A stretch of DNA of 50,933 nucleotides, filler included, from Basidiobolus ranarum (Eukaryota), in the NCBI GenBank assembly GCA_040143965.1. It is 2 parts of 2 records of this genome, joined end to end, with 100 filler letters (N's around TTAATTAATTAA, not from the genome) between each part and the next. Parts side by side here need not be neighbours in the genome. Positions count along the whole stretch, not along the records: positions 1 to 25,549 come from JASJQH010007017.1; 1 more part is not named here. One strand, written 5' to 3'. This document shows, in pieces, positions 1-50,704 of the stretch. The notes below the pieces were generated by a model, which was not told the origin of the DNA, did not search any database, and saw only the letters and a program-made list of their open reading frames with translations. Position 1 is the first letter of the stretch. Every line of letters starts with the position of its first letter. A program made the position numbers and the translations under genes.

Positions 1-205
1 GACCATGGGGAGTGGCAGAGTGAGAGTACGTTGGAAGAAGAAGATTTCGATGGGAATGGCCATGTATGATAAGGAAATGAACACATCAGCCACCATAGTT
101 ATCCAAGAGACGGAGTCATTTCCTTCTAATCAAGATACAAAAAGAGAAAATGAACAATGAATTTCAGTATACCAAATTTATGTTCTCAATATGCATACCT
201 GGCAT
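1..205 (-). CDS. 5' end of ethylene-receptor-like (ETR1-type ethylene-binding domain) sensor protein, runs off the window edge
   Basis: ATG at 205, exon 1 ATGCCAG (199-205), GT-AG intron 126-198, exon 2 125-1. Spliced product MPEGNDSVSWITMVADVFISLSYMAIPIEIFFFQRTLTLPLPMV. The segment ADVFISLSYMAIPIEIFFF aligns with Arabidopsis ETR1 helix 1 SDFFIAIAYFSIPLELIYF. Confidence 0.8.
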
Positions 206-2361: not shown

Positions 2362-3675
2362 TTAGCATGTATCAAAATCATTCAAATTGATAGATGGGAC
2401 TGATTCATAATCAAGACTAAGTTCAACATGCTCAATCCCGTGAAATGTTTGAGCGACAAAATCGTCTGGCAAATATTCATATTGCTTATCCATGCTCTTC
2501 ACCACGTACCGTCTTCCAACTGGAGGATTCGACTGTATTGCATATCGTATTAGATCATTGAATGTCATTTTGGGAGATATCACTATTCGATCTTTAACCG
2601 TCTTCTTAGCTATGTGTAGAGATACAGTTTTCAGTGGTACTTTTTCTGAAAATCAAAGCCTATCAGTAGCCGATTTAACAATTGAAGTGAATAAACACAA
2701 ACTACCTTTAGGAGAAGCGGAAGCAACTATGTGAGCTAGATCGTAAGTGACCAATGGCGCAAAATCTCTATTCGGAGGTGTCTGCAGTCGCGGAGATGGG
2801 GAGGGCGATGGGGAGGAGGACTGGAATATTATATCATCATCTTCAGAACTGCGAGAAGCTTTCCTCATCGAATTAGCTCTTTGTATCTTCGTATTCAATG
2901 TTTGAGGGTGAAGAGGTAGAAAGGTTTGTTCCGATTCAGTTTTTACATAATCTTGGCAGAACACTACACTATTCAAGTTGGCCAATTTTGATGCTAGGCC
3001 TCTCAGAGGCGAAACTGGGGATTTGTCCAAAGTAACAACACGGCCTATTTGTTGTGGAAATAGCTATTATTAAATTAAAATACACTAATTTGCGTTGTTC
3101 AACAATTAGTACCTTGGACGCCCTTATCACCATTCACATTCGATAATGGACTTCCTGTAGGAGAGAAACGAGAAGTACGGAATCTATCGCTTCTAGGAGT
3201 TGGCTTACTAGCAAGGCTACCTTCATTGAAAACTGGTAATTAAAAAGACATTAGTGTATAGTACAAGGTTGTCGAAGTGAACAAAAAAGCAACCTTTAGC
3301 CCATCTGCGACAAATCGAGTTACACGCCATGCAAAGTTTGACTTCCTTACATGATTCCTCCCAAATTAAGCGTTGAGAGAGGTTGGCCTTTAACCAAGTC
3401 ATAAAGACTCGATTATTAGGTAAAATACATCTACGACGAAATTCCACTTTGTAACCTTGTCTTCTCTTATTCCAGTGAATTTCGGAAGCGGGACAGTGGC
3501 AATCGTTGGTGCCATATTTTCCGGCACAAGTTAAACAGGTTAAGCATGTTACGCATATATTTGGACGCAAAGAGAGAGAAAATTGAAAAGAAGGTTGTTC
3601 CAATTCAAAAGAGGGAAGTTTTGTAGTGCTACGCTCATTATTGAGCTTAAAATTGGGAATATAAACCTCCGACAT
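2362..3675 (-). CDS. Uncharacterised 4-exon protein: N-terminal Cys-rich putative Zn-binding region, Ser/Pro-rich linker, small C-terminal (possibly ubiquitin-like/PB1-type) domain
   Basis: ORFs 3223-3675, 2653-3030 and 2362-2583 join through GT-AG introns. The TGA at 2653-2655 lies in an intron (GTAGTT...TTTCAG). Motif CVTCLTCLTC-x8-CHC...CMAC. Confidence 0.65.
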
Positions 3676-4768: not shown

Positions 4769-6223
4769 TTATTGAGATGGGACCCAAACAGAGACTGATC
4801 CACCATTAGCCTTGAAGTTGGCCCATCCATCTTCTTCAATCACAACCTCATCTTCACAATGCCCAAGGAAGTCACGCCATTTTTGACCTGCTCTATCTTG
4901 ACCAACCTCCATTCTTTTCTCACCAGCATCGCTGTTGGTTAACACCACAGCACATGCTTTACTTTGATCGTCTTCCTTGCCCATACGTACCCATCCAACA
5001 GTGTTGGGATGGTCCCAATAATCCCGAGTCTCACCACAGGCATAGTCTTTCCTGGCAAGTAATAGTTGTTTGATTACATCATACTTGGGCGGAACTGGCT
5101 CCTCACCACTAATGCCATACAAGTCACCATAGAACACACAAGGATACCCTTGGTCACGTAACAGAATGATGGCATATGCATGTGGCTTGAACCAATCCTG
5201 AACCCAAGACTCGAGCGACTCACCTGGCTGTGAATCGTGGTTGTCAACAAAGGTAACAGCATGGGTTGGGTGCTTGGCGACGATAGTCTCATCGAACAGC
5301 TGTTGTAGGTCATACTCCTTGCCTTTATTCGAGGCCTGAGAGAGATTGTAGTGTAGTGGGACATCGAACAGATCGATCGAGTAGTCCACATCCTCCAAAT
5401 GTTTGTCCACCGCTTCGATGCTACTCTTCCAGAACTCACCGACAGCATAGAACTTGTCGTTACCCAACTCCTGGCGTACGTGCTTCATCAAATCATATAT
5501 GAATTCTCCATCAATGTGTTTCGCGGCATCTATGCGGAAACCTGAAAGTTGAAGCTCTTTTGACACCCATACGGCCCATTTCTTTGTCTCTTCTTGGACC
5601 TCAGGGTGACTGTAGTCGATGTTGGCAAACATGAGATAGTCATAGTTTCCGAATTCATCATCCACACTATCCGCCCATGACTTATTTTCCCCCACGATCC
5701 GATACACTCCTTTCTTTTGGTTCTCCTCATCCCAGTCGGTTCCAGTGAAGTGGTTGAAGTTCCATTTGAAGTCGGAATGCTTATCACCACGTCCTGGGAA
5801 TGTGAACTTTGTCCAAGCCACAATATCATGTGGTTCTGAAATTTCATTCTCTCGATTCTCTTGATCCACTTCGATCGCTTGGAATCTCTCAGTCTCATCA
5901 GCTGCCGCTTTATGATTCAGCACCACGTCACAGTAGATTTGAAGTCCGTGCTCCTTACAATGCTTGATTGCTTCGACTAACTCCTGCTTGGTCCCATACT
6001 TGGTGGCAACGGTGTTTTTCTGGTCAAATTCTCCAAGATCCCAGAGATCATAAACACCATACCCCACATCTTCTTTCGTTTCACCTTTGGTAGGAGGTGG
6101 AATCCAGACCCCGGTGATTCCAAGCTCTGCTAGCTCCTGAGCTCTCTCTTGAAGACGCTGCCAGTGCTTATGGTCGGCGGGAAGGTGCCATTCAAAGAAT
6201 TGAATCATTGTTTCATTACCCAT
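4769..6223 (-). CDS. Cytoplasmic alpha-amylase, GH13 subfamily 5 (Bacillus AmyS/liquefying type), intronless
   Basis: 484 aa. Motifs GYGVYDLWDLGEFDQK, DVVLNHK, GFRIDAAKH (nucleophile), VGEFW (acid/base), FVDNHD and C-terminal NGGSVSVWV. No signal peptide. Confidence 0.97.
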   Translation of the reverse strand: MGNETMIQFFEWHLPADHKHWQRLQERAQELAELGITGVWIPPPTKGETKEDVGYGVYDLWDLGEFDQKNTVATKYGTKQELVEAIKHCKEHGLQIYCDVVLNHKAAADETERFQAIEVDQENRENEISEPHDIVAWTKFTFPGRGDKHSDFKWNFNHFTGTDWDEENQKKGVYRIVGENKSWADSVDDEFGNYDYLMFANIDYSHPEVQEETKKWAVWVSKELQLSGFRIDAAKHIDGEFIYDLMKHVRQELGNDKFYAVGEFWKSSIEAVDKHLEDVDYSIDLFDVPLHYNLSQASNKGKEYDLQQLFDETIVAKHPTHAVTFVDNHDSQPGESLESWVQDWFKPHAYAIILLRDQGYPCVFYGDLYGISGEEPVPPKYDVIKQLLLARKDYACGETRDYWDHPNTVGWVRMGKEDDQSKACAVVLTNSDAGEKRMEVGQDRAGQKWRDFLGHCEDEVVIEEDGWANFKANGGSVSVWVPSQ

Positions 6224-6319
6224 ATTGAGGTTTATTTTACTCGCTTTGGAAGAGGAAGGTATAAATGCTACCAGCTAAGAAATCAAGGCTGATACGTTTA
6301 GTAGAGTTTCTTGGTTGGG

Positions 6320-7220: not shown

Positions 7221-9276
7221 CTAATAGCCCATAAAAAACAAGTTGATTTTCTTTAGTGTTGCCCTAGATGGAGAGGCCTAGAAAGATATTATTAGTGATT
7301 CGAATTCAACCTTCACATCCATACTTCAGTAGAGATCTTACCGATGGATGGGATTCAGTGATCTGAAGTAGTTTTCGCAGGATCAAATCTTTTGTTACTT
7401 GAGATTTAGCAACACCTTCCGGTACTATATCGCCAGCTTCGTTATAATAATGGATCATAATGGCGAGTGCAATTCCTACGGAGCGATCTTTGCCTTGAGC
7501 ACAATGTACAAGGATAGTACGATTCTCGGTTAACTTCTCTTTAGCAAATTCCAAAGCTTTTGGAATTAATTCGAGTAAAGTAGATTGGCCTTTTTTCCCC
7601 TCGGGTATATTAAGGTGTAAATATTCGGATTTGTGAGTTTCATCAAGATTATCGTTATACTCGAGTTCACAGCAATTGATGATGCAATCGAAGGTGTTCC
7701 AACATTGAGGAGGTCGTCCTAATCATTGTAATGAAATTTTGTTAAAACCTATAAAAGAATATACTTTAAATGGCGATATTTACCACTGGTACGACTACCG
7801 ATGGCGATGGTAGTTCCTTCAATAAAATCGAATGGACGTTGTATCGGTTTTCCAGATTTATCGAGCCATTGTTCGCCATAATGCTCGCTACTCTGTGATT
7901 TCTTAGCTTTAGCAACGATTTCACGCACGCGACGTTCACATGTGGCTGCATCAGCTGCAAGAATGGATTCATGGTTTTCCCAGAATAACGAAGGAGTTAA
8001 ACCCTAAGAGAAATCATAAGTAACTTAACAGACATGTTGATTTTGAAATTAGCAAAATACCATGGCCCAACATTCATGATCGTCGGCAGATCCCTGAATG
8101 TACATATAGCCCGGTTGAGGCTCCATCGCAGATTTAATTTGACGTGAAGCACTTAAACAGAGTACGGGATAGAATGGCTCATCTTCATAGCAAATATTTG
8201 TCGTAGCAGATAGTTGTGATTGTGGAGTATACCACAGAGGACGTAACGGCTTTTGTAAAAGAGAAGATAATTTGGATAGATTGATCCCCGAAGACTTTAA
8301 ATATGAACAGTATGAGTTAAACAACCAACGACAGTATGTAAAATTTCTCAACTTAAATTACCGAAAGTTTTTGAACGAAATCTGCCATTCTATCTGAAAT
8401 TTGACTATGTTCGGAAGCAGAAATAACCGATGGAAGTGAATGAAACTCCAAATCCCAATTCTGTGGTAGTTCCTCTTTTGTTAAAGTACCGTTGATAATT
8501 TGTTGTTGGCGCCATTGATAGATTGCATTGTTTATTGCGCAACACCATATCGGAACAGTCTTGGAGAGCGAGTCGGGAACGCGTTTTCCACGTCTAGTAG
8601 AATCCACCAAAATACATCCGTGGTGTTGTTCGATTATATCAAGTAGGTGAAGGTTTAAGCGTCTCAAGTTCAAATTCCATTTTCCTGTGTGCCCATCAGT
8701 AGATTTGAAATATACTGTTTGGTAAAATAACTAAAAAAAATTGACGTTGTTTAGTAACTTACAAAATAATACTATGTTGCAAGAATACTTACTTTCTTGG
8801 GTCGTACATACCAGGTTCCACACCTTTCGTTCGCTAGAAAATATTCCGAATATAGTTTGAGTTATGGTGAAAAATTCGGTTTTTTATGACGAAGGGATAT
8901 ATAATGGCCTTCAGTTGAAGAACATTAACAGAAACGTCTGATGGTTTGTCCAAATCACACAGTATTGCTTACCTATCAGTGGTAGTTTAGGGAATATCTC
9001 TGCAACATTGTCTACAAAATCAGCATCTACTTCAATTGATCGAAGACGATTGTACACGTTTTTATTATCTTTCCTTAGTTCCTCTAGTATGTTGTGCTGG
9101 TTTGGGTGTCCAAAGGTAACGTCAAGATCAGAGAAATCTTGGTTAATGTTTTCAACTGAAACAGACTGAAAACTTGGGGCAGTATCCAAAAAGGGCTCGA
9201 AGTCCGTTGAAGGGAGGCTTTCAGTATCAGAGAAGTTATCCTCAGAGTCACTGTTGACAGAACAAAAGAAAGACAT
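7221..9276 (-). CDS. RIT1: tRNA A64-2'-O-ribosylphosphate transferase (multi-exon)
   Basis: Motifs NERCGTWY, YFKSTDGH, ILVDSTRRGKRVPDSLSKTVPIWC, YIQGSADDHECW and C-terminal DUSP-like HCAQGKDRSVG. Ends PSRATLKKINLFFMGY*. Confidence 0.93.
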
Positions 9277-10407
9277 TTTAAACACCGGAAAGGATGTAAA
9301 TTAGATAATTTATTTATTGTGGTTCTATTATGAAAGTTTGCCTAAATCCATCCAAATCAGACAAGTATCTCAATTGATTTAGTGAAATAGCTACAACAGA
9401 CAGAAAGACACCTTCCCATCAAACTTTAACTGACATTTTAGAACTCATATATCCCAAGTGTGCCAAGCTTCATATAACCAATGCTTATCTTTAGTCTGTT
9501 TATCATTCATGTAGAGTTGATGATTTAGCACCTGGATTAGGACAGCAAGATTATCACGCGCGAGGAAGTAACAAGTACATGTTTAGATCTATCTAGACCA
9601 ATGCAACAGTAATACACGTATGTATTATTGCCAAGCATTCTGCGATCAAGAGAGCATAGTTTCTAGATAGCAGTCTAAGTACAAAGCGTTATTACAATAT
9701 TGGGAAATTAAGACTTGATTCAGAATATCCAATACCGATGTATTACTGTATCGGGTAGAAGGACTTGATTAATATAGATAGGCAAGATTCCGTGCAAATT
9801 TCAATGTTCTAAGTCCCATCTCTACAGCCTGGTAATGTTATAGCAGAGTTAGGATCAGAACAACTCCAGGATTACAGGAAATATTCTTAGCAGAAAAATG
9901 AATTAAAATCCGGATTATTGCCAAATCCAAATCCATAGTTACTGGCGGCAAAACTTTATCCTTGCTCAACATCACAGCTTTTCACAGCTCCAATCGCGAT
10001 GTTACTTGTTGTCCTTATTTGCAGCGTGACTAGCTAGGAATACCTTCAAAAGCATCAACATAAAAATGAGGAGCTCCGCTTCATCTAATTATCTTGTCTA
10101 GAACTTCTCTGAGATGTGTACAAACAAGGAAGAGTAGTTTGGCTATCGCCGCATTCTAGCCTCTTCACTTATGTAAATGCTGAATGTACTACTCTTTTGA
10201 ACAATTTCAAATCACAAAGATATCCCACTACTCCCCTGCTCCCAAATAGGCGCTCTAATCCTGTCCAGACACTCGGTCCATCTATGCTAACCCAATCATT
10301 GATGATATCTCCAAATTTGTAGAAGCGGGTTTCTAGGCATTTTTGAAAATAAAAGGCCGTGTACCAAAGTGGAGCTCCTTCATCAGTGCAAATAGTTACT
10401 TCACATC

Positions 10408-14380: not shown

Positions 14381-16067
14381 TTATTCATCATGGATAACCA
14401 AGTCTTCGAGGAGCTCTTCCAGAGGAATCTCTGGTGCATTTTCATCTTCAACGTCGGTCATTTCTCCGTCAGTCTCCATAGCATTGACATCTGGTTTCTG
14501 CTCAGAGCGGTAGAGATTAATGGTGGAACGAAGTTCAGCATCTTCTTCAAGATCACGTAAGAATAACTCGAAGTCTTGTTCGAGTTTCTCTTGCTCTTGC
14601 TTTCTGGGAAGCATTTCTTCCTCCTCCTTGTTCAAATTCTTGAGCTTCCAGTGACGCTTATTCTTCTTCTTGCGGTTAGGATAGCTCTTCTTGACCAAAA
14701 TAACATCGGGAAGTGCGTTTCTATTCATTGAATCGAAGTCATTGTTGTTGAAATTGGCACTGGTAAGATCATAACCCATGACAGTATCTCCGATATTCAA
14801 GATACCTCCGAGGTGGGAGCGGGCAAAGAAGGTAGTGTCGTTTTTACCAAAGTCGCTACTACGGGCCACCATGACATCAGCAAGGACATTCTTACCACGG
14901 ACAGCACCGAGCACTTCAACATCCAAAACATAATACTCTACCATGTCTTTAACAGTAGCAAGAGAGTCAAATGGATTTCTCCAGTAGACAGCGTTGGTGA
15001 TATCGGCAGAGTTCAGAGTATTAGGATCCAAAACATGGATAGAGTTACCGATACGGCTGCAGAGAACTAGAGGCTGAATGTTGCCAAGAGACCTGGCGAG
15101 CTTAACGGGTAAACAAACAAGATCGTCCTTACAAACTGGTACAATTTCAACTGAGTAAGTGAATTTGTAATTGGAGGTACCACTGTGGATATCACTAGAA
15201 ATAAGTTGTTCGGAAGTTTTTGAACGAACAGGAGTGACGGCATTTAAGAATTCTACCATCTTGACTGCATGACTACGTTGAGCATAGAAGAAATCTAAGC
15301 CATCTCTAAGCTCCTTAATGTTGATGGTATCTTTGTGAGCATTATGCTTGAGAATGAGCTGTTCCAAGTACATGAAGGTACGCTTATGATTGACCTATAA
15401 ATCAAGAAGTATAAGAAAGATGAACATACAGTGAAAGTGCAACGTATAACTCGTACCTTTTGTCTCACTTGCACTGTAGCTTTCCAAGTGTTTTGAGCAG
15501 CAACTCTGGTACACTCTTCACATTGTTGAGTACAAACAACAAACTCAACTTCGAAGATTTGTTGAAGAATTGTAGAAGCAAACACCTTATATATGAAATA
15601 GCATGTTAATATTGAACACACCAGCACAACATATTATTGAGCAACAAGATCCTACCTCTTTCTGAATAGTGAGTTTGACTTTAATTCTGCGCGAGTGAGG
15701 TTCAGTCCAAATGAAACCAGCGTCAACGAGACGAACCTTATTTAAGCCCTTGAGTTTCTTTAAACATAAGGCTAAAAGTTCTCTAGATTCGAGTTGACAG
15801 CTAACCCAAAGGTTAGGTGGTTGATGGTATCTTTCACAATTACGACAGAAGTGAATGGTAGCCTGCTTAGGGATTCCTTCAGTGATGTCAACCTCGTTAC
15901 GAATACAGTTAAGGCACATATTGGCCGGGTTGGGTGGAATGGGAGTACCACAAGAACAACATAAGCTAAGCACAAAAAGTGTAAGTAATAAGTATATTAA
16001 ATAGCTCGCTAAAAAACGCTTCTTTAACTTACATAAGTTGCTGCTGAGCTTCAGGATTATATTGCAT
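14381..16067 (-). CDS. NMD3: 60S ribosomal export adaptor
   Basis: ILCCSCGTPIPPNPANMCLNC, FIWTEPHSRRIK, C-terminal FLRDLEEDAELR and NES-like EELLEDLVI. Short exon 1 MQYNPEAQQQL. Confidence 0.96.
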
Positions 16068-16256
16068 TTTGGTATTCTGACAAGGAGAAAGAAGGGAACA
16101 GAAATAACGGGAAGGACAATTCGGTTCAAATACTAAACTAACTCCTTCAACGCAATCTTACTACGGAAGTCAATTCGAAAATCCGCTTTTTTTCTTTTTT
16201 TTCTCTTTTCACAAATTTAATACAATATCAATTTGCTTATTAATGTCCGGATGTTT

Positions 16257-21732: not shown

Positions 21733-23311
21733 ATGCCTGCCTTTGCCAAAGCTTCCCTAGATTTATCGAACCAAGGAAAAAGCCCCTTAACTATGGATCG
21801 CAACGACGAAGCCAGTTAGTATCATTTTTATACTGGGCTCTTGATATGCTTCAGTTGAGCTAAATTTTTGTATTTTACCAAAGTTTTTAGTCATCAGTAT
21901 TCCAGCGAATGCGAAAGGATGCTTTCACAATTCGTCGACTCATTAGATAGTTCTTTGGATAGTGATAGATTTTCGAAAGTACTTCACCGTACCGAGGAGC
22001 CTTATATCCATATTTTCCAGGATCCGAAAGTTAGTTATGGATACAAAGTAATTGCTCGTCTTGATTGTAAGCCAGAATTAGCGTTTGAATACATGCTAGA
22101 TGTAGAAAGGTGGAAGCAATGGGACGATCTTTGTGAAGGTGCTGAGATTATAGAAGCTGTAGACCCCGTTACTCGTTTTCAGTACATAAGAACCAAGCCC
22201 ATTTGGCCTATATCGGCTAGAGATGTTCTTCTATTTTCAACTATGAAGAAATTGGAGGATGGTAAATATATCATGGTTGGGAAGAGTATGGCCCATGAGA
22301 AATGTCCAACGAAAAAAGGAGTACTCCGCATGGACGTTGGTTTCTTGGGGATGTGTGTCTTTTCTGAGCCAGAAGATGATACCAAATGTAGAGTGGTGTT
22401 CGTTGCGGATGGAGATCCAAAGGGATGGGTGCCAAAGAACATAGTTAAATTTGGTATGTTTCCGTTTACTTTGAAGGTTGTTTGCCGAAAGATATCTAAT
22501 CTGTGTTATAGTTGCCACGAACGCTATGCCATTGTCTCTGCGTATGCTGAGCAATAATTTGGGATCGATGCCACCTATAGAGTACAATTTGGTTTCGGTA
22601 CTCAATTCTCTGGCTGAACATAAGCCCTCGACCCGCTCTCCTCTTCTTTCAAGCCTGCGTTCAAGTATCTTAAGGTTAAGCACCAAGTCACCGAACAACG
22701 CCAAGTCAAGAGTGTCCATAATCTCGTCTTTTCTGTTAAACAGCAGAAGTGGAAGCTACCATGGAAGTCATTCTTCAACTAGCATAAAGCCTCGAAGTGT
22801 ATCTACTTCGAGATTTACTAGAGGTGCTTCTGCACGACCTGGATCTCCCCCCTCGGCTCAAAGTGTATTGACTGAAAAAGCATTGCCTATCGTTAAACAA
22901 ACATCAACGCCTGAACCAAAGGAGATATTACCACCATCTCAAGAATCACATAACTACACCTCATCAGTAGATCAAATTCCCTCTCTCACCGACTCATCTT
23001 CTCTCACTTCCAAGTCTAAATCACTTAATCCTTCAGATTCAGACATGACAACCACTCTAACCTCTAGTACTACTTCACCTAACACCGAAGCCGAGTTGAA
23101 GACCAAACGCCGTCGAAGTCTCCTCGTTAACCCTAAACAAGTAACCGACAAATTATGCGGTAAACTTCGTCGAATGAAAACCCGTGTACGAAATGCTATG
23201 ACACATTCCAAGCCACCTCATGAAGAATTTAATGAAAAATCAACTACCCCAGTAATCACACAATATCCAAACAACTCCTCACCTGGTTTGAAAGTAGCAT
23301 GTGTTTCATAA
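21733..23311 (+). CDS. START (lipid/sterol-binding) domain protein with long Ser/Thr-rich C-terminal tail
   Basis: WKQWDD, KPIWPISARD and DPKGWVPKNIV are START hallmarks. An intron near 22454-22511 joins ORFs 21868-22557 and 22478-23311. Confidence 0.88.
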
Positions 23312-25413: not shown

Positions 25414-25486
25414 TGGTCTGGCCAGGATTTGAACCTGGGGCCTCCTTCACTCTAGCAAGGTGCTCTAACCACTGAGCTACCAGTCC
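25414..25486 (-). tRNA. tRNA-like sequence/pseudo-tRNA (AGA at the anticodon position, short variable loop), probably part of a mobile element
   Basis: GGACTGGTAGCTCAGTGGTTAGAGCACCTTGCTAGAGTGAAGGAGGCCCCAGGTTCAAATCCTGGCCAGACCA. A and B boxes and D/T stems are intact; A3:A70 and G31:G39 are mismatched; there is no Ser-type long variable arm. Confidence 0.7.
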
Positions 25487-30118: not shown

Positions 30119-33100
30119 TTATACAAGACCAAAGCCACGTGCATTTTCAATGGCTATTAGTAGATTCTTCTTCAATTTTTGTCTAGTCGTATATTCAGGT
30201 AGGAGTAACCGTCCGAAACATGTGAGGGCAGTGGGCAATCGGTCAGAGTCTGGTCCATTTCTTTGTATAACAAATGTGATGGCGCCAAGACCCTTTACGG
30301 GAATACGATCACTGGCGGTAACAAATATCAACAGTTTCTTCTGTTCTTCCTTGGTCATATCATGAACTACACTCCAGAAGTTACGAATCACATAATGGTC
30401 AGGATTGTAACCATCATCGTATTGGGCACCACGTTCCAACTCATTAAGGTCCACTTCTGAGATTCCGCATAACAAAAGTTCCAATTCCTCCGGTCTTAGC
30501 ATTGATAGAGCAGTTCCACCACAGACTCTTGAGAATCCGTCTCTCAACGCATCAAATTGCTTCGACACATACTTGTTGGCGAAATGTTCAATATACAAAT
30601 GGACATATTCATCACGGTTGTTATTTGTTACGGGAACATTGACACCATTGGGAATCAATGGAAAGGTGTTCATAACTCCAGCCTCATCATACGCAATTTC
30701 AAACTCTCGCATGAATACGTCATAAACATCTCCATCTTTCCATTGTAACATTTGCTCCAAGCCCTTTCCAAGTACGGGGAATCCTTCTTTAATGTCTTCA
30801 AGATTGATCGGCTTTCCCAACAACTTTTTGTATATCAGCTTTGGAAAGTTCGCTCCAATGATAACTCCATTGTATAGTGCCAACCCAAGGATGATTCCCA
30901 CCAACTCGAAATACTTCTCGCCTTCTTTGGAAGCTCCATTGATCCAAGAATACCTAGTCTCATCGTCATATACGAACATCCCGAAAACCGGATCAAGTAA
31001 CTTGGTGATCAACATTTGGAAGAATTCTTTTTGTACACCACCCTGATCGATACCTTCTTCGCCTCCATTGACAAATCTAATCTTAAGAGGTTTCTTCAAA
31101 TTTTTGGCCTTTGCTTCGATTTGGGTCAATGCATCTTCGATGAAATGTTCTCTTCGAATTTCCAATATAAAGTAAGGACAAGTTAACCGACGTAAACTTT
31201 CCTCAATACGAGTGGCCTTCTGAGAATCCTGCATGAACCGTTGAGCATGCAAAACAAGAGCGTGATGCACACATGCATCTTCGTACTTATTAGACATTTG
31301 ACAGACAGCATCTACATGGAATATCAAACTCTTGGCACTAGGATCAAATAAGAAAGGGAAATTGAAATACGAGAATTTTGGTGATTTACGAATGGAAGAA
31401 CCTAAAGTTGCTTTCCCGTCTCTTTCAGTTGACCTCTTCCATAAACGATATTCATCCTTTATATTCATAGTGGTAGATAACACCTTATTGTAGAATACAC
31501 TAGGTGAAACAATGTGCTCAGATTTAGAAGTTTCATTAGCATCATAGAGTAGTCCAAGTACTTTGGTAGCGCATGCGACAGGGTCATCGGGTCTCGGATT
31601 CGATCGGAAATGATTAGCTAGGTACTCGTGGAACATATTCACGATCTTCAAGAAGCCATGGGAATCATAAGTAGAAAACCATTGTAATAGAACACTTCTA
31701 GCGGAGCCGCTCACTTGGCTTAATACTTGTGCCAGTTTTCGTAGCAGAGATTCGGAATAAAAGGAGTCGGTCATTAATGGATTTTCCAGTAGGATTAATA
31801 AAACTCTTAAACCCTCAGCTCTTGACAATCGTCTTGAGTTAATCTCTAATTCAGCAAGAACAATCTCAGTAGCAGCAGCTAGATTATCTACAAACATTTG
31901 CTTAGGCTTTTGTTTGAGTATTAGCTTATAAGAGCTACGAATAGAGTCCAAATCTAATCCAGACATGTGTTCCTTCTCCGAGGAATCAGCCAAGAAACTA
32001 GCATTCAAGGCATCTGTAGAAGAGAAAACTGTGCGGATAGTGTTGACTAAAAACTTAGTATCACTGGGACCGGTCACTATAGTGCGTCGAGAAAGTGACC
32101 GGTAATGTCGATATGACATAAAAGATTTGGGTGACTTTGGTGTCGCTTCAACTGTTTCTCGTTCTTTTCCTTTTTCAAACCAATCATCCTCATTATCTTT
32201 TTGAACAGATATGGAGTCATTGTGATCAGATGAATATGTGGCGATTGTACGTTGTAGCAGCGATAACGTCAAATAACTAAGACTAAGTTGTGGCTCAGTA
32301 TCTTCGCTTTCACTACTTAAAAGAGAACGCCAATCAGATACGCTATCATCATCAGCTGGACCATGCCCGCTGGTACAACCTTCTGAAGTAGAATGGCGAA
32401 ACGGAATAAAGTCGACTATATGACATTCAAATAATTAGGACGATAGTGAAGTTACGACTATGGAAGAATGATTTAACTTACAAGAATGGCTTAGAAGTTT
32501 GGGAAATCCTAGATAATTGTGTTCTCTACGAGATCCGTTGGGAAGATCTGTCTCTGATTCTTCTAGCTTATTGTAACTTGAAGTATTTCGTAAGAGTAAT
32601 GCAGGCGATGAGTCATTATTGAAAGTCTTCCCATCAATGGAAGGTGCGGTGTTTTGTCTACGTAAACGTCGAGATAGAGTCACAGAATCCGTATGAGTTT
32701 GAACATTCGAATTATTACTTTGTATCGTTGATATAGAGGTAGGCGGACTGGCTGAAGGACGAGGGGCATCATTCGAACTATTTGTGTCGGAAGAAGAAAA
32801 CATAGATAGGAACGGAGTAGAAGAGAACAAGGAATATAGAAAAGGTTTGACTACTGCTTTTGGTGCACTCGGTTTTGAAGATCTTTCAGAAGAATTGATG
32901 GAACTTGAGTTGGAGGCTGTAAAGAGTGTATTAGGAAGAGAAATATCTGGTTCAGAAGGGCAAGTAGGGCAAAAATAATGGCGGGAGCGAGAGGCAAGTT
33001 GTACAGCAAAAATAGCAGCGGATTCGGATGACATACGTGGAGAAGCTGCAGCAAACAATTAGACTCAGTCGTGGGAAGAATTTCGAAATGTGAAAAATAC

Positions 33101-35410: not shown

Positions 35411-38049
35411 CTAATTGGTACTATCTAACAAAGTATAAACATTCAGGTAAAGAGAATCGATGGGGTTTTGAACTAGTCTATCGAAATACTCCGTATTTAA
35501 GTGACCCCACTGGCGATGGATAAGCTTTAAGCGACTTTGCAGAGGGCCCAAATCTACGGCTGATGGTACTACCAACAAAGTTCTATATAGTATGTTAGCA
35601 TACGAATACGGAACATATAGCATGGATCTAAATATACCTTTCAAACTCATCCTTGGAGGTGACTTTGAAAACTGCAATATTTGCTGCGGCGTCAGATCGC
35701 ATGGCTGAAGCAGACACGCCATGGTAAGAAGCTAATGTCTCCTGCAATATATCGAGCGACGATCCTGCCAAATCAACGAGCTTAATCGTACTTTTCCCCT
35801 CATCTTTGCGTTTAATAGCTAATAGATGTTGTGGTGGCATATAGGTTTTGTAGAAGATGAGATTCGTTCTCAGTTTGAACTGGGAATCAAGCTCTAAAAA
35901 CAACAGTTGCAGTTATCCAATATTAATGAGATGTCCAAGAGGTTTCTTACCTTTGTCTTGAGGTGAATAGGAATACTGACAGTGAATATGCTCATCATAG
36001 AAAGAACAAAATACAGGTTCGTTGATTTCATGTTGGACGTGATTGAGAACAGGGATGATACCCCCTTGATGGAAGATTCCAAATATCAAGAATCCAAGAA
36101 TATTGAACAGCACGAAGATCATCTACAGCGTTGCGAGTCAATACAACTGTTATATTTGCAAGTAAAACTTTGATATGTAATAATCATACCCAGAATCCCC
36201 TAGAAGCTGACTTGAGCTTGTCACTCAAGATGAATATGACTGGAAATAATATGGGTAACAGAAATCGAGCCTCCTGGTGCGGCATCAATGAGAGCACCGT
36301 AATCCCGAATAGGACCGAGTAAGCAAAAACTAGATGTAAAGAATGGTTAGTTAGGGAGCTATATAGAGTGTACGGTATTTTGAGTAAAGATCTTGCTCTA
36401 ACAATATCCCCAATCAAATCGTCTTTGATATGAGTCCTGTTCAGACTTGGGATTTGACAACTCGAAAATACCGAAATATCACAGCGATCGTAGTGGCAAA
36501 GTCTTTCATCATATTGTGGAGAACAAACCTGTTTTCAAAAATGTTTCCGAATAATATTTCCTGTTGAAAATCGCAAGGCGGCATTTATTCTCCAAAAGAT
36601 AGGCGAGCGGTCCGAGTAAAAGAGGCGTGTATACCAATAAATGTAGATACCAAGGGTGAAGTCCATGTAATGAAAGGTTTTCTTTGTTCGAGTTGTAGAG
36701 TACATTGTTCAATGGTGTAATAACCAACTCTCCCTGTAAGATTACATTAGTAGAGAGTACGACACCAAGTATGTAAATGTTTACCTTTTTGAAGCTATCC
36801 AGTAATGCAAATGGGTTGAGTAGCAACGGATACAGTTGAGTGACACTCCGTATCTTTAGCGAGCCGAAATATATGGAGTCGATAAGAATCATAGCCAAAC
36901 TAGATAGAGCTAGCCCAACAAATAGCGGAAGAATAGCAACCATGAAGGCGGAAAACTTTGATAGACTGATGTAATTTCGAGTTAAAGGCTTAATCTTTGC
37001 TCAATAAAACTTTAGTAACTTCATACATATTTCTCCGGGGATTGCTAAGTGTTTGGGTTCCAACAGCGTAGAGGTATGCACAACCAATTGGGAAAGCGTA
37101 GATCACAAAAGTAATTCGAGTGAATGATCCTAATGCAAATACGAGTCCAAGGGCTAGAGAAGCCTTTGTTGAGGGAATCTATAATTTAAATGGCTAAGTG
37201 AGGTGACATGGAGATATCACAACTAAACAACACAATGTACCTTGAATGCTGTCGTTGGTACTTTGCCAGCTTGTTTATTGAACTGCGGTATTACAACAGC
37301 CACCTGTAAAATGTACCCACATAACGCTAACAAAATAGCCTCGGTAGCATTTGAAAACGGTCTTGTGAAGTAAACCAATAACGTATATGAAGACGACAAT
37401 ACTATTAAAGTGGGGTAAGGATCTCGTCGATATATCTTAGCCAATCTGAACAAAATAAAGTCTAGAAACCGAGGGATGTTAGATGTCATAAGATGGAAAT
37501 TTAGGGTACTTCAGTTACTTACCAAAAGCGAAGCTGAATAGTGCGAATGGCAGTCTTTCGGCGATCAATAGTGTGATTGTATTGATTGGAAGCACTTGAA
37601 TAATGTAAGTGAGATAATCGGTGCTTTCAGTGGTTCTAAATTGCAACTTACTATTGAATCCGTATTGATTTAATGTGTTGTGCAAATATTTAAGAATTGC
37701 AAAAGGAATCCCATTTACGAGAGCACTTCAGGAAAATATAGGTCAATTCATAATGCATATCAGTGGTTAAAAACCAAATTCATGTGAATAATAGCTTACG
37801 GAATGACAATCGAGCGGCAAGGCCATGTAGCATTGTATTCCCATGGCTTAAATATTTCAAAATGAAAGATGTCACCTAATCCACAGAAACTAAGTCAGTT
37901 CTTTGTAACCAATATTTCGAAGTCGGGAATATACCTGCAACTATTTCTGGTGTTTGGAAAAACTCATCTGGATGTATGTAGCCAGGTAAGAATATACATA
38001 ATATTCGAAGTATGACCAAAGAGGTATACCAAGTGCGTTGGCATATCAT
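35411..38049 (-). CDS. SMP3: GPI mannosyltransferase 4 (PIG-Z/SMP3, GT22), multi-exon
   Basis: [31 protein letters not shown]...[33 protein letters not shown]. Confidence 0.93.
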
Positions 38050-38438
38050 TTCGTATTGACCAAGAGTTGAGTTCAAATTATTATTCACGTAGAATTTATG
38101 AAGAATCATGACTATCAATTGTCTCGCATTTTTATAAAAAATAGCTACAAATGAATCAATCTTATGTCTCACCAGTGACGTCAAAAGTTTACTTGGTCAA
38201 TACGTTTTACTTTACCCGAAGCGCCACTATTGACTTTATATTTTTTGTAAAATATCGATTATTCAACCAAATATCGGGTTTCAGCTAAAGATATATAATT
38301 AGCAACTCATTGTTAGGTTCTACTTCACACTTGCTTCTCGCGATAAAGCTTAAATTTCATAGCTTTATTTGGTACAATGATCTAGACTATATATTGTGAC
38401 ACTAAAGTGACGGGCTCAACTATACGTTGATTTCTAAA

Positions 38439-40650
38439 ATGTCTACAAACACCTATATTTACCAAAAGACAATAGGAATTGGCAGCTCATGTCGAGTAAA
38501 ACTATGCAAAAAGGAGCGAACTGACAAGGAACTAGAATATGTAGTCGTTAAAGAAGTACCTTTGAAACATGTGGACACAGGACATGGCCATGAAAAACTA
38601 TTTCAGGAATCTAACATCCTAGCTTCTGTATCTCATCCTAATATCATTGGATATAAAGAATCGTTCATAGAAAATGACTGCTTATGCATCGTTACAGAAT
38701 ATGCCGAAGGAGGTAGAACGACTTCTGATCAACAACTTGAAATCCTCATGTCTAATCTTCGAAAATAGGGGATTTACATGCGTTAATAAAGAAAAGTAGA
38801 AGATACTTTGAAGAAGATCAGATCATGAGCTGGTTTACACAGATTGCTCTTGCTTTAAGTCATATTCATAATATGAATATCATCCATCGTGGTTGGTATC
38901 AGCCTGTTAACTTTGGCCTTTATTTAACGTAGAATTTAACTTTCCTTCTATAGATGTCAAAACGCAGAACATATTCTTGACGAATATGCAAAAAAGAATC
39001 AAGGTCGGTGACTTTGGAATATCGCGTATTTTGAAGGGTGCTGAAAAAGCCCGAACAATGATAGGCAAGACACTATTGCTCACCATATTCTAGTTTATTG
39101 CACTTTGTTGATATTCATTTCAATTGATTAGGTACCCCTTATTATATGAGCCCGGAGGTATATCAAAACAAACCATATCCTTTAACTCGCCTATAAGTGA
39201 GTCTTTGAAACTCTGATTGTTGCCACTTCCTTAACGTAAATACTTATGACCAAAAGACTGACGTTTGGGCACTTGGATGTGTTCTGGTAAAGCGATATAT
39301 TTAAGACCCTTAACTGTCTGAATCTTAATCATAAATAATGATTTTATAGTACGAGTTGTGCTCCCTACGACACCCCTTCGTTGCCAAGGATATCAAAGCC
39401 TTGGTAGTCAGGATATCTGAAGACAATTATCCACCGTTACCCAGGTATTGCCTTTTGCGTACATCTATACTACATGTGATACTCAAGCCCATTAGTCAGT
39501 ACTCTTCAGACATAAGATACTTAGTGTCTTGGATGTTGAGCTATGATGCAGAAAAAAGACCCAATATTCGTGACATCTTAAATACAACCTACGTAAAATA
39601 TCATTTGAACAGACTCTACAACACATCTTGGTTTGCTACTACTCAAAAGGCTTTTGCTCAGGTTATTACTACACATATGATCAACTTCAGCTTTAGTCTT
39701 AACCATGCTTGTATAGGAGTCCAAGTCCGACCCTCCTAATCCAATGTTGACTGTCATTTCAAAGTATATATAGTTCAATACTATTTAGGGAAATGTTCTC
39801 CAAGTGACCTTATTTTGTAGGATCCCAAAAAATCCGAACATGTCCAACTCCTCTTTAAACAAGCCAAAAAGAATCATTTATGTAGATAGAAGCATATAAT
39901 TATTTTAATTTGACATAGAATGTACTAAATCAATTACCTGAAGAGGAATAGTACATTAACCGACACCTCCATGTGAGTAGAACCTCCAGCAATATCTTCA
40001 ATGTTATGCAGTGTCACTAATAGCCATCAATAGAAATCAACCACTCCAAATCTCTATTCCATCTGATTTATCCAACTTATCACTTGTATGTATATGTGTT
40101 GGCAATCTTTCAAGTTGACCGTACTATAGCTCACCATTAGCCCAAGCAAGATGCATTAGGTTCGACAAGGACGAGGATCCCCACCTCTATCAAATCAGGG
40201 GTGTCTGACGCTTCAGTATATAAAGATTCGCAAACCGAAGAGTACATGTAACGATATCATTTCCTTGTTGATTTCTATCATTAACATATTGAGGAAGATT
40301 TTTAGGACATCTTAAGCTTCTTCGTATATCGGAGGCAGTCGTGGAATCTCTAAATATCACACCAGATGACTCCATATACACGTGTGTTCAGACGTTGAAA
40401 GACTATCTGGAACATGTTCTGGGAACAAGCAAGGTTCTACAAGGCTACCGATATGTCATTAAATCCATGATGAAATTCAAAACCGTTAACAAAGCGGAAT
40501 TAAGGAAAAAATTAGGAGGACATCCTATGAAATTGAAGACTGCTGAATTGATTATCTTACTAGGTATGTGAAGATTAATTCATTCTAGAATATGTTGATC
40601 GCTAAATGGGCGCCTTAGTTTATTCCGAGGAGAAAGCTTACCACGTATAG
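38439..40650 (+). CDS. NIMA-related (NEK1/4/5-like) Ser/Thr kinase
   Basis: VVKEV, HPNII, EYAEGGDL, HRDVKTQNIFL, DFGISR, GTPYYMSPE, KP|YDQKTDVWALGC. C-terminal LKDYLEHVLG helical domain. Confidence 0.9.
39175..39243 (+). other. Canonical AT-AC (U12-type) intron in the NEK kinase
   Basis: CC|ATATCCTTT...TTCCTTAACGTAAATAC|T TAT. Consensus U12 donor and branch point, and an in-frame TAA inside the intron. Confidence 0.95.
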
Positions 40651-41356: not shown

Positions 41357-42702
41357 CTACTGCAAGAAGCGCATAGCAAATTCAAAACTAAATCGAAGAT
41401 GTTAGTTCATTGCAATTGAATTACTTGAAGAGAAAAAACTTACCCAACAAAAGTGGCCGCATTAGCTGGAGCAGCACGAATAATACATGGAGCAATACCA
41501 CGGAAGAAGCCAGCCGCACCTTCATGAGCGAAAGTCTTACGAGCGCAGTCAATCATGGATTTGTACTTCTGGGAGGCAGAATCGAAACTATCAGTCTGAA
41601 GTTTGGATTTGATAATATCCTACGTGAAAGTCAACGGTCAGTTACTAATAGTAGAGACGTTACTAAGTATATGCGATACTTACAATAGGATAGATTGTCA
41701 ACCACATAGCATAACCAGCGGCAGCACCAAAGGTACACACTTTCCAGGTAGGAAGTTGATCTCTAGCTTTGTTCTCTGCTTGCATAGCACGTTGAACCAA
41801 GTACTCATAAGCAAGGAAGTAGGCACCATAACCTTGGAACTCACGGATCATAGTGGCGACTTGACCTTTATAGATACCACGAAGACCATGTGATTTATAA
41901 ATCTTTTGGATACAGTCAACAGGTCCTGTATAAAAGACCTTAGAGGGAACTTGAGAACCAGCACCACTTGCAATAGCAGGAGCACTAGAAGTTTGGACTT
42001 GTAAGCGAGTACGGATGTGTTCAACAGGACCTACAAATATTGTTAACTAACTAGAATTTAAGATGGAAGCAAGTAGAGAGATTTTACCAGAAACAATCGA
42101 GTTAGCTACACCAGAAGCGGCACCGGCAACATACAATTGTGAAAGAGAAAGCATGTTCGATTCAGCACCCTTACCGGACCTTCTGTTGATGTCAGTATAA
42201 GTACGCTTAACAGCTTCAAGTACGAGAAATTGAATAGAAACACAAGCACCAACACCGACAAGGGGAGTGGTGGTTCCCTATTTTTGAAACAGCTAATTAA
42301 TACGAAGTTCGAGAGAGAGTAATTTAACATATCACCTACCTTGTAGAAACCAGCAAATCCTTCTTTGGCAATAGTTTGTTTGACACAGTCAATAGTACCT
42401 TTGTACAAAGGAGCAGCACCAGGAGCGGGAGTTGGTTGAGTTTGAAGTCTCTACATGTGCAATAACATATTTAACCAAATGTTTGAGGTCACTGAATGCT
42501 TATATAGTTCACATACCACTTTGACAGTATCAAAAGGCTATTCGAAAGACAACAAAAGTAGGAAAGAAACCAATTAATCAACAATCTTAAAGTTTTAGCA
42601 AGCTAATGAGATTACCTGGCCAGCAAAAACTTGAAGAATACCACCAGCAGAACCTGCAACGCAGTCCTTAACAGCACGCATGGAGTCTTCGTTTTTAGTC
42701 AT
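41357..42702 (-). CDS. Mitochondrial carrier (SLC25), Ymc1/Ymc2-ornithine/carnitine carrier clade
   Basis: [75 protein letters not shown]. Confidence 0.92.

Positions 42703-47021: not shown

Positions 47022-50704
<3,683 letters not shown>

Follow-up and report, generated by a model that had tools for sequence, protein, structure and literature searches.

At the left edge of the window, by which we mean the whole stretch of DNA analysed (50,933 nucleotides of Basidiobolus ranarum, filler included), the minus strand carries a stop-free open frame of 43 codons, LEGNDSVSWITMVADVFISLSYMAIPIEIFFFQRTLTLPLPMV, which continues past the edge. The visible codons specify a short piece of N-terminus followed by transmembrane helix 1 of an ETR1_N domain, and the coding sequence runs on leftward (Table 1). 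The key codons of helix 1 align with D25, Y32, I35, P36, E38 and F42 of the reference protein P0039 in our alignment A1, and tblastn placed residues 1-32 of the B. meristosporus protein P0003 on window positions 96-1. The frame of exon 2 is closed upstream by an in-frame TGA, so translation of the conserved residues ahead of helix 1 requires a start in an upstream exon. Searches of the window with the relatives (tblastn) gave no second copy, and tRNA and Rfam scans gave nothing near the locus at 1-205. The plus-strand reading of 1-205, an open frame of 52 aa at 2-160, had no match to the ethylene-binding domain (EBD) profile and was rejected.

Table 1. Positions of the features discussed in the text, counted along the window.
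Feature	Position	Strand	Basis or description
Open frame, 43 codons	1..129	-	Continues past the left edge
Visible coding exon 2	1..125	-	2 bases finishing codon 3 and 41 codons, G4 to V44 (spliced numbering)
Helix 1 core, MVADVFISLSYMAIPIEIFFF	34..96	-	Alignment A1, residue table, tblastn
Helix-1 key codons	D 87-85, Y 66-64, I 57-55, P 54-52, E 48-46, F 36-34	-	
Candidate 73-nt intron	126..198	-	GTATGC donor 198-193, TACTGAA branch-like site, pyrimidine-rich tract, TTAG acceptor ending 126
In-frame TGA closing the exon-2 frame upstream	130..132 (132-130)	-	Sequence
Proposed coding end of exon 1, ATGCCAG	199..205	-	Start codon 205-203, A at -3; sequence and model enumeration
Frame	2362..2652	-	
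Frame	2653..3063	-	
Alpha-amylase frame	4769..6274	-	Uninterrupted, 501 codons; Alpha-amy_C_pro (PF09154, 'Alpha-amylase C-terminal') at end
Rit1	7306..9300		Pfam
Cytochrome P450	11762..12376		Pfam
NMD3	14381..16132		Pfam
START domain	21859..22557		Pfam
tRNA gene, 73 nt	25414..25486	-	Rfam 58.6 bits; ARAGORN tRNA-Ser, anticodon AGA
HECT ligase	30119..32434		Pfam
Alg9-like mannosyltransferase	36184..37000		Pfam
Protein kinase	38406..38768		Pfam
Mitochondrial carrier	41663..42046		Pfam
DPP IV / S9 peptidase	47022..48514		Pfam

Gene start and splicing

The splice elements that the preliminary description had proposed, a first exon of 7 nt and an intron at 126-198, are all present on the minus strand, and their junction is in frame. 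The donor at 198 stands in the context CAG|GTATGC, and when 199 is spliced to 125 the frame stays open and the product reads M-P-E-G-N-D-S-V-S-W-I-T-M-V-A-D-V... Enumeration within 600 nt upstream yielded five in-frame ATG-plus-GT models to which the acceptor at 126 can be joined. Four of these have poor donors (GTATTA, GTTTAG, GTTTCT and GTTCCA) and introns of 489-589 nt. The 73-nt model is the only one of the five that combines a consensus-like donor with a length like that of the other candidate introns in the window, which in a heuristic scan, with true and false calls mixed, measured 41-149 nt (most plausible about 60-105 nt) and had donors of GTAAGT or GTATGT type. The acceptor region itself is tandem: at 123-127 on the minus strand TTAG is followed by AAG, the second AG lying at 124-123, three bases downstream, with one codon fewer. 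Either AG is in frame, giving MPEGND... or MPGND...

Judging from these signals, the ATG at 205-203 is rather likely to be the start codon, with the candidate 73-nt intron lying within the coding sequence. The same gene could lack a coding mini-exon and start at the ATG at 96-94 (MVADVF...), as would agree with the annotated starts of the B. meristosporus models (MVADVF in P0003, MIADLL in P0004) and with P0007, which begins MVADLF; the candidate intron is, moreover, read from the DNA sequence only. We regard this shorter start as somewhat unlikely, for the stretch S-V-S-W-I-T ahead of that Met, which has no in-frame ATG upstream of it within exon 2, resembles S-I-A-W-V-T of B. ranarum P0002, and the proteins P0009-P0011 also have about 10-20 residues ahead of helix 1. 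Two further points speak against it: a short upstream frame of 6 codons begins at an out-of-frame ATG (119-117) immediately ahead of that Met, and an ATG, a consensus-like donor and an acceptor are found upstream exactly in frame.

Family assignment and conserved residues

Residues 7-35 of the window peptide matched positions 2-30 of the 97 in the Pfam profile ETR1_N (PF25487) with an E value of 1.3e-5 and 25.8 bits, just below the cut-off of 27 bits, a shortfall which arises because only 30 of the 97 profile positions fall in the window. Our own EBD profile, made from 102 family members with the Basidiobolus proteins left out, found the frame at 1-129 with an E value of 1.9e-10, and the next best of the 1644 six-frame ORF pieces (at least 20 aa) had an E value of 1.1. 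Three independent scores, from Pfam, from our own profile and from the search that gave the close Basidiobolus relatives described below, thus bear out the ethylene-receptor-like helix 1 that had been suspected at the edge, and the check by profile searches that had been suggested for it gives ETR1_N.

As a reference for ETR1 numbering we used P0039, a protein of 740 aa that is of the plant ETR1 type by architecture only (ETR1_N 17-115, GAF 158-306, HisKA 342-407, HATPase_c 454-584, receiver 615-726) and that has D25, Y32, I35, P36, E38, C65 and H69 in its own numbering. The preliminary description had named D25, Y32, I35, P36 and E38 as all conserved, and in alignment A1 the window residues indeed occupy the same columns as those of P0039. 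The ETR1 helix-1 string quoted there agrees with that of P0039, SDFFIALAYFSIPLELIYF, in all residues but one, and that one is different. Column counts in 107 family sequences are 104 for D, 104 for Y, 105 for I, 103 for P and 100 for F, all of which are kept in the window. E38 is kept there as well, and since E is carried by only 42 of the 107 members it is the least diagnostic of the five residues. In the helix-2 ligand columns the family has Cys in 105 of 107 and His in 107 of 107 sequences.

The primary mutagenesis of ETR1 residues is reportedly that of Wang et al. 2006. A passage in PMC11819568 states that ethylene binding requires D25 and C65, and assigns H69 and K91 to the copper site and output; I35, P36 and I62 are counted among the residues essential for ethylene binding in a passage of PMC6586836. 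No sequence in the PDB matched P0002 at E values up to 10, so there was no solved sensor domain to serve as reference.

Basidiobolus relatives

The 43-residue peptide, compared with longer proteins, gave four matches among five candidates, all of them from Basidiobolus, which is in accordance with the origin in an early-diverging fungus that had been proposed. The best match, against 5.8 billion proteins, was P0002 of B. ranarum (369 aa, E 7.3e-13), named 'Histidine kinase osmosensor, variant 2', and the others are the B. meristosporus proteins P0003 (K493DRAFT_388940, 351 aa, E 3.9e-8), P0004 (K493DRAFT_348989, 338 aa, E 7.1e-7) and P0005 (K493DRAFT_295633, 338 aa, E 0.66). When P0002 was searched against proteins of similar length, five were recovered among 3505 candidates, namely the same four and P0007 (B. 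meristosporus K493DRAFT_336014). Identities of the window peptide to these five are 33/43, 30/32, 27/32, 20/21 and 27/32 (77-95%), and every other sequence in A1 is at most 59% identical to it: 46-59% for P0009-P0011, at most 44% for full hybrid kinases and 20-30% for plant-type sequences. None of the five Basidiobolus proteins, four of which come from one B. meristosporus genome, has exactly the sequence of the peptide, and by its sequence the window gene is a further member of a small Basidiobolus family. P0004 and P0007 are both reported from contigs of equal length (169885) and may lie on one contig.

The five Basidiobolus proteins (338-369 aa) matched ETR1_N only in Pfam (5/5, 58-77 bits). 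HisKA, HATPase_c and receiver domains were found by Pfam in none of the five; the Pfam GAF model gave no match in them, and their GAF domain is supported by fold only. ACGATH, with the copper motif CGATH, is present in helix 2 of all five, as are the C, G, T, H, K, S and P of helices 2-3, including the equivalents of K91, S98 and P110. The AlphaFold2 model of P0002, made with a 107-sequence alignment (mean pLDDT 86.7, pTM 0.71), has helices at 2-35, 42-66 and 74-145, then an alpha/beta domain that reaches roughly to residue 300, and its tail is disordered. When this model was compared with the PDB by Foldseek, 242 matches at E <=0.001 were obtained and the best of them were GAF domains, isolated GAF domains matching with E values of 1e-6 to 3e-5 and target TM-scores of 0.64-0.71.

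Alignment A1 shows the Basidiobolus sequences reaching only as far as the beginning of HisKA in P0039, beyond which they have nothing but a Pro-rich tail, ending ...YDMKPLNWP in P0003 and P0005. The mean identity among the five (10 pairs) is 88% in the EBD, 96% in the linker helix, 79% in the GAF and 39% in the tail, a pattern of protein identity, not dN/dS, which fits selection on the folded parts. Because its five nearest relatives end after the GAF without HisKA, HATPase_c or receiver, the window gene most likely encodes a truncated sensor-plus-GAF protein and not a histidine kinase, so the framing as an ETR-like histidine kinase in the preliminary description is probably not right for this lineage. 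This short architecture is taken from gene models of two species, all of which could miss downstream exons, but the shared ending of the sequences after the GAF argues against such an omission. A metagenome scan with P0002 and with patterns that included PIEIFFFQ, which is also encoded in the window, matched 130 stretches, none of which was confirmed as a relative.

The homodimer of P0002 residues 1-320 predicted by ESMFold2 had a score of 0.45, against 0.00 for the best of three controls. Of 30 proteins solved as pairs of one chain, 21 reach the mark that it passed, and of 23 solved as single chains none does; among eukaryotes 17 of 29 reach it, yet only 1 of the 7 lacking an older solved relative, so the pass may be a memory of related folds. 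Three runs, in which the alignment was not used, agreed in at least 79% of contacts, with a partner pLDDT of at least 70. Helices 1-3 and residues 102-133 form the predicted interface, with Cys58 opposite Cys58. As an expression of the model's own confidence, this prediction supports the formation of a homodimer by P0002 and does not prove it.

The wider ETR1_N family

With P0002 as query, a full HMMER search yielded 4377 representatives at E <=0.001, 414 at <=1e-10 and 9 at <=1e-30. All 20 representatives that were scanned have ETR1_N, and 12 of them also carry HisKA, HATPase_c and receiver domains. P0009-P0011 (576-626 aa) have ETR1_N with weak HisKA/HATPase_c matches and no receiver, and by this architecture only we take them to be of the Entomophthoromycotina kind (Conidiobolus CcHHK3, Ancylistes ETRs). 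Among the 43 representatives shorter than 450 aa, 7 have ETR1_N and GAF only, 9 have ETR1_N only, 12 have PAS domains and 11 have kinase parts; such short representatives may be fragments, and their numbers therefore do not tell how frequent stand-alone EBD-GAF proteins may be. A word-limited search for longer homologues returned one long protein, of 1452 aa from Allomyces, with HisKA, HATPase_c and receiver, which is weak evidence that there is no long Basidiobolus form.

Comparison with known ethylene receptors

The closest likeness is to the five Basidiobolus ETR1_N proteins, which share with the window peptide the helix-1 residues and a short N-terminus free of Cys. The plant ETR1 type, represented by P0039, shares the ETR1_N domain. 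The window retains its D25, Y32, I35, P36, E38 and F42, the close Basidiobolus relatives retain its C65, H69, K91, S98 and P110, and in P0039 and these relatives alike the GAF follows the sensor; the identity of P0039 to the window peptide is just 25%. The plant type differs in its N-terminal Cys pair (positions 4 and 6 of P0039), which is absent in the window peptide and in the Basidiobolus relatives. This pair links the dimers of plant receptors. For OsERS1 a role of Cys4/Cys6 in dimer linkage is described in a passage of PMC13261662. The plant type also has kinase and receiver, whereas the Basidiobolus relatives end before HisKA. Plant-type output runs via partners of the kinase domain (CTR1), and as the Basidiobolus relatives have no kinase, such partners would have nothing to dock on.

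Bacterial SynEtr1 and AzoEtr1 have the same sensor domain and binding residues, and passages in PMC6682694 and PMC11819568 report that ethylene binding was measured on the isolated N-terminal domain. These two are two-component kinases with response regulators, whereas no kinase is expected in the window gene. Entomophthoromycotina homologs consist of EBD and GAF without receiver, with a kinase region that is degenerate or absent, as far as passages in PMC5285503 and bioRxiv 10.1101/2023.12.22.573025 describe them; most retain a remnant of the kinase region, and the Basidiobolus proteins are without it.

A 2023 MPMI paper reportedly deals with kinases of arbuscular mycorrhizal fungi. Basidiobolus is not mentioned by Kabbara et al., and it does appear in Herivaux et al. 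2017, a passage of which (PMC5285503) lists the B. meristosporus homolog Bm|388937|. The same source speaks, in a passage on the Conidiobolus and Basidiobolus proteins, of 'striking truncated structures', which are interpreted as gene erosion. In a preprint (bioRxiv 10.1101/2023.12.22.573025), ETR homologs are stated, in the part concerned with their distribution, to occur in all examined Entomophthoromycotina except E. muscae, to have the binding residues and one GAF each, and all to be without receiver. Two Ancylistes ETR genes are described there as having no kinase region at all. The preprint suggests a role mediated by the GAF, comparable to the action of rice OsERS2 on MHZ1/OsHK1. The preliminary description had conveyed a sense of something largely new, and this has to be given up, considering that truncated homologs were described in 2017 (in the passage of PMC5285503 mentioned above) and again in 2023 (in that of bioRxiv 10.1101/2023.12.22.573025). 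The truncated kind is already described, and the window gene adds one more Basidiobolus copy.

The gain from the window alone is small and amounts to correcting the annotation at the edge of a contig or of the window. A concrete gene start is supplied as well (ATG at 205-203, candidate intron 198-126). The conserved Basidiobolus proteins are, in addition, a convenient minimal system for the question of how an ethylene-binding domain signals without a kinase.

Proposed function and alternative explanations

Taken together, positions 1-205 of the minus strand are probably the 5' end of a gene for a kinase-less, ethylene-receptor-like membrane protein of the Basidiobolus type. Judging by the five relatives, its full product would have about 340-370 residues and three membrane helices, and the Cys/His (CGATH) site of helix 2 would hold Cu(I). 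Helix 3 would run on as a long helix into the GAF domain, followed by a disordered, Pro-rich tail, with neither kinase nor receiver. Such a protein would presumably form a homodimer via the membrane helices and the linker helix, and ethylene or a similar small unsaturated ligand may be bound at the copper site as in ETR1. Its signal would have to pass without a kinase, possibly via contacts of the GAF domain or of the helices with other proteins.

As the window shows only 43 codons of the gene, the remainder to the left could in principle encode a full ETR-type hybrid histidine kinase with sensor, GAF, HisKA, HATPase_c and receiver, as found in the 12 of 20 scanned representatives and in the Allomyces relative. 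All five relatives that are more than 60% identical to the visible peptide are, however, without kinase and receiver domains, those with kinase remnants are only 46-59% identical and the full kinases in A1 at most 44%, and the Basidiobolus form has been described as truncated (PMC5285503), all of which makes a hybrid kinase very unlikely. The same shortness of the visible sequence could hide a dead copy, either a pseudogene or a first-exon fragment left stranded from the Basidiobolus family. In favour of this, the family is multi-copy, with four proteins in one B. meristosporus genome, and the truncated forms have been read as products of gene erosion in a passage of PMC5285503. Yet the 43 codons contain no stop or frameshift, all near-invariant helix-1 residues are present, the reading frame follows the relatives to its final visible residue, and the ATG, donor, branch-like site and acceptor upstream are intact, so that we consider a dead copy highly improbable.

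Membership in ETR1_N could also go together with another function than ethylene sensing, for example that of a copper-binding or cation-conducting membrane protein or of a sensor for another small ligand. In the literature on ethylene receptors, Basidiobolus and early-diverging fungi we found no ethylene- or copper-binding test and no genetic test of the truncated fungal forms, which leaves room for such a function, and Ca2+ conduction by rice OsERS1/2, independent of the ethylene-binding Cys65, is reported in a passage of PMC13261662. The channel activity in rice needed Cys4 and Cys6 according to the same passage, and both are absent in the window peptide. Furthermore, the residues singled out for binding in the passages of PMC11819568 (D25, C65, H69) and PMC6586836 (I35, P36, I62) are all kept in the relatives, those of them that belong to helix 1 are kept in the window, and bacterial homologs with the same residues bind ethylene, as a passage of PMC11819568 states. 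A function other than ethylene sensing is for these reasons rather unlikely, and we retain the reading as a kinase-less ethylene-receptor-like protein.

A further question is whether the Basidiobolus proteins are relics of erosion or have a role of their own. The family-level results argue that the copies are kept by selection, with sensor, linker and GAF conserved, a tail that varies and a confidently predicted dimer. Only tentatively, and as a possibility that falls short of being probable, we propose that the EBD-GAF proteins without kinase in Basidiobolus, among them the one encoded here, are maintained, multi-copy, stand-alone gas sensors and not eroded relics. A membrane dimer that holds copper would then signal the presence of ethylene, or of some other small ligand of litter or gut that is unsaturated or gaseous, through the linker helix and GAF to separate partners. 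The domain-wise conservation and the predicted dimer are compatible with this proposal and do not show it. If it is true, it would amount to a signalling layout distinct from that of the two-component ethylene receptors.

Other features of the window

The nine ordinary eukaryotic genes recognised by Pfam elsewhere in the window (Table 1) include none tied to two-component or ethylene signalling. Upstream of the gene, about 2.1 kb (206-2360) contain no ORF of more than 96 codons. The two minus-strand frames that follow had no Pfam match and look like two exons of one gene with a short intron near 2640-2700. The uninterrupted alpha-amylase frame sits among genes that are apparently split by short introns and is possibly an acquisition of bacterial type; horizontal transfer into Basidiobolus has been reported in the literature. 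The tRNA gene has a short variable region and an A-A mismatch at the acceptor pair 3:70. As cytosolic tRNA-Ser normally has a long extra arm, this gene could be a decayed copy or a tRNA with a changed anticodon.
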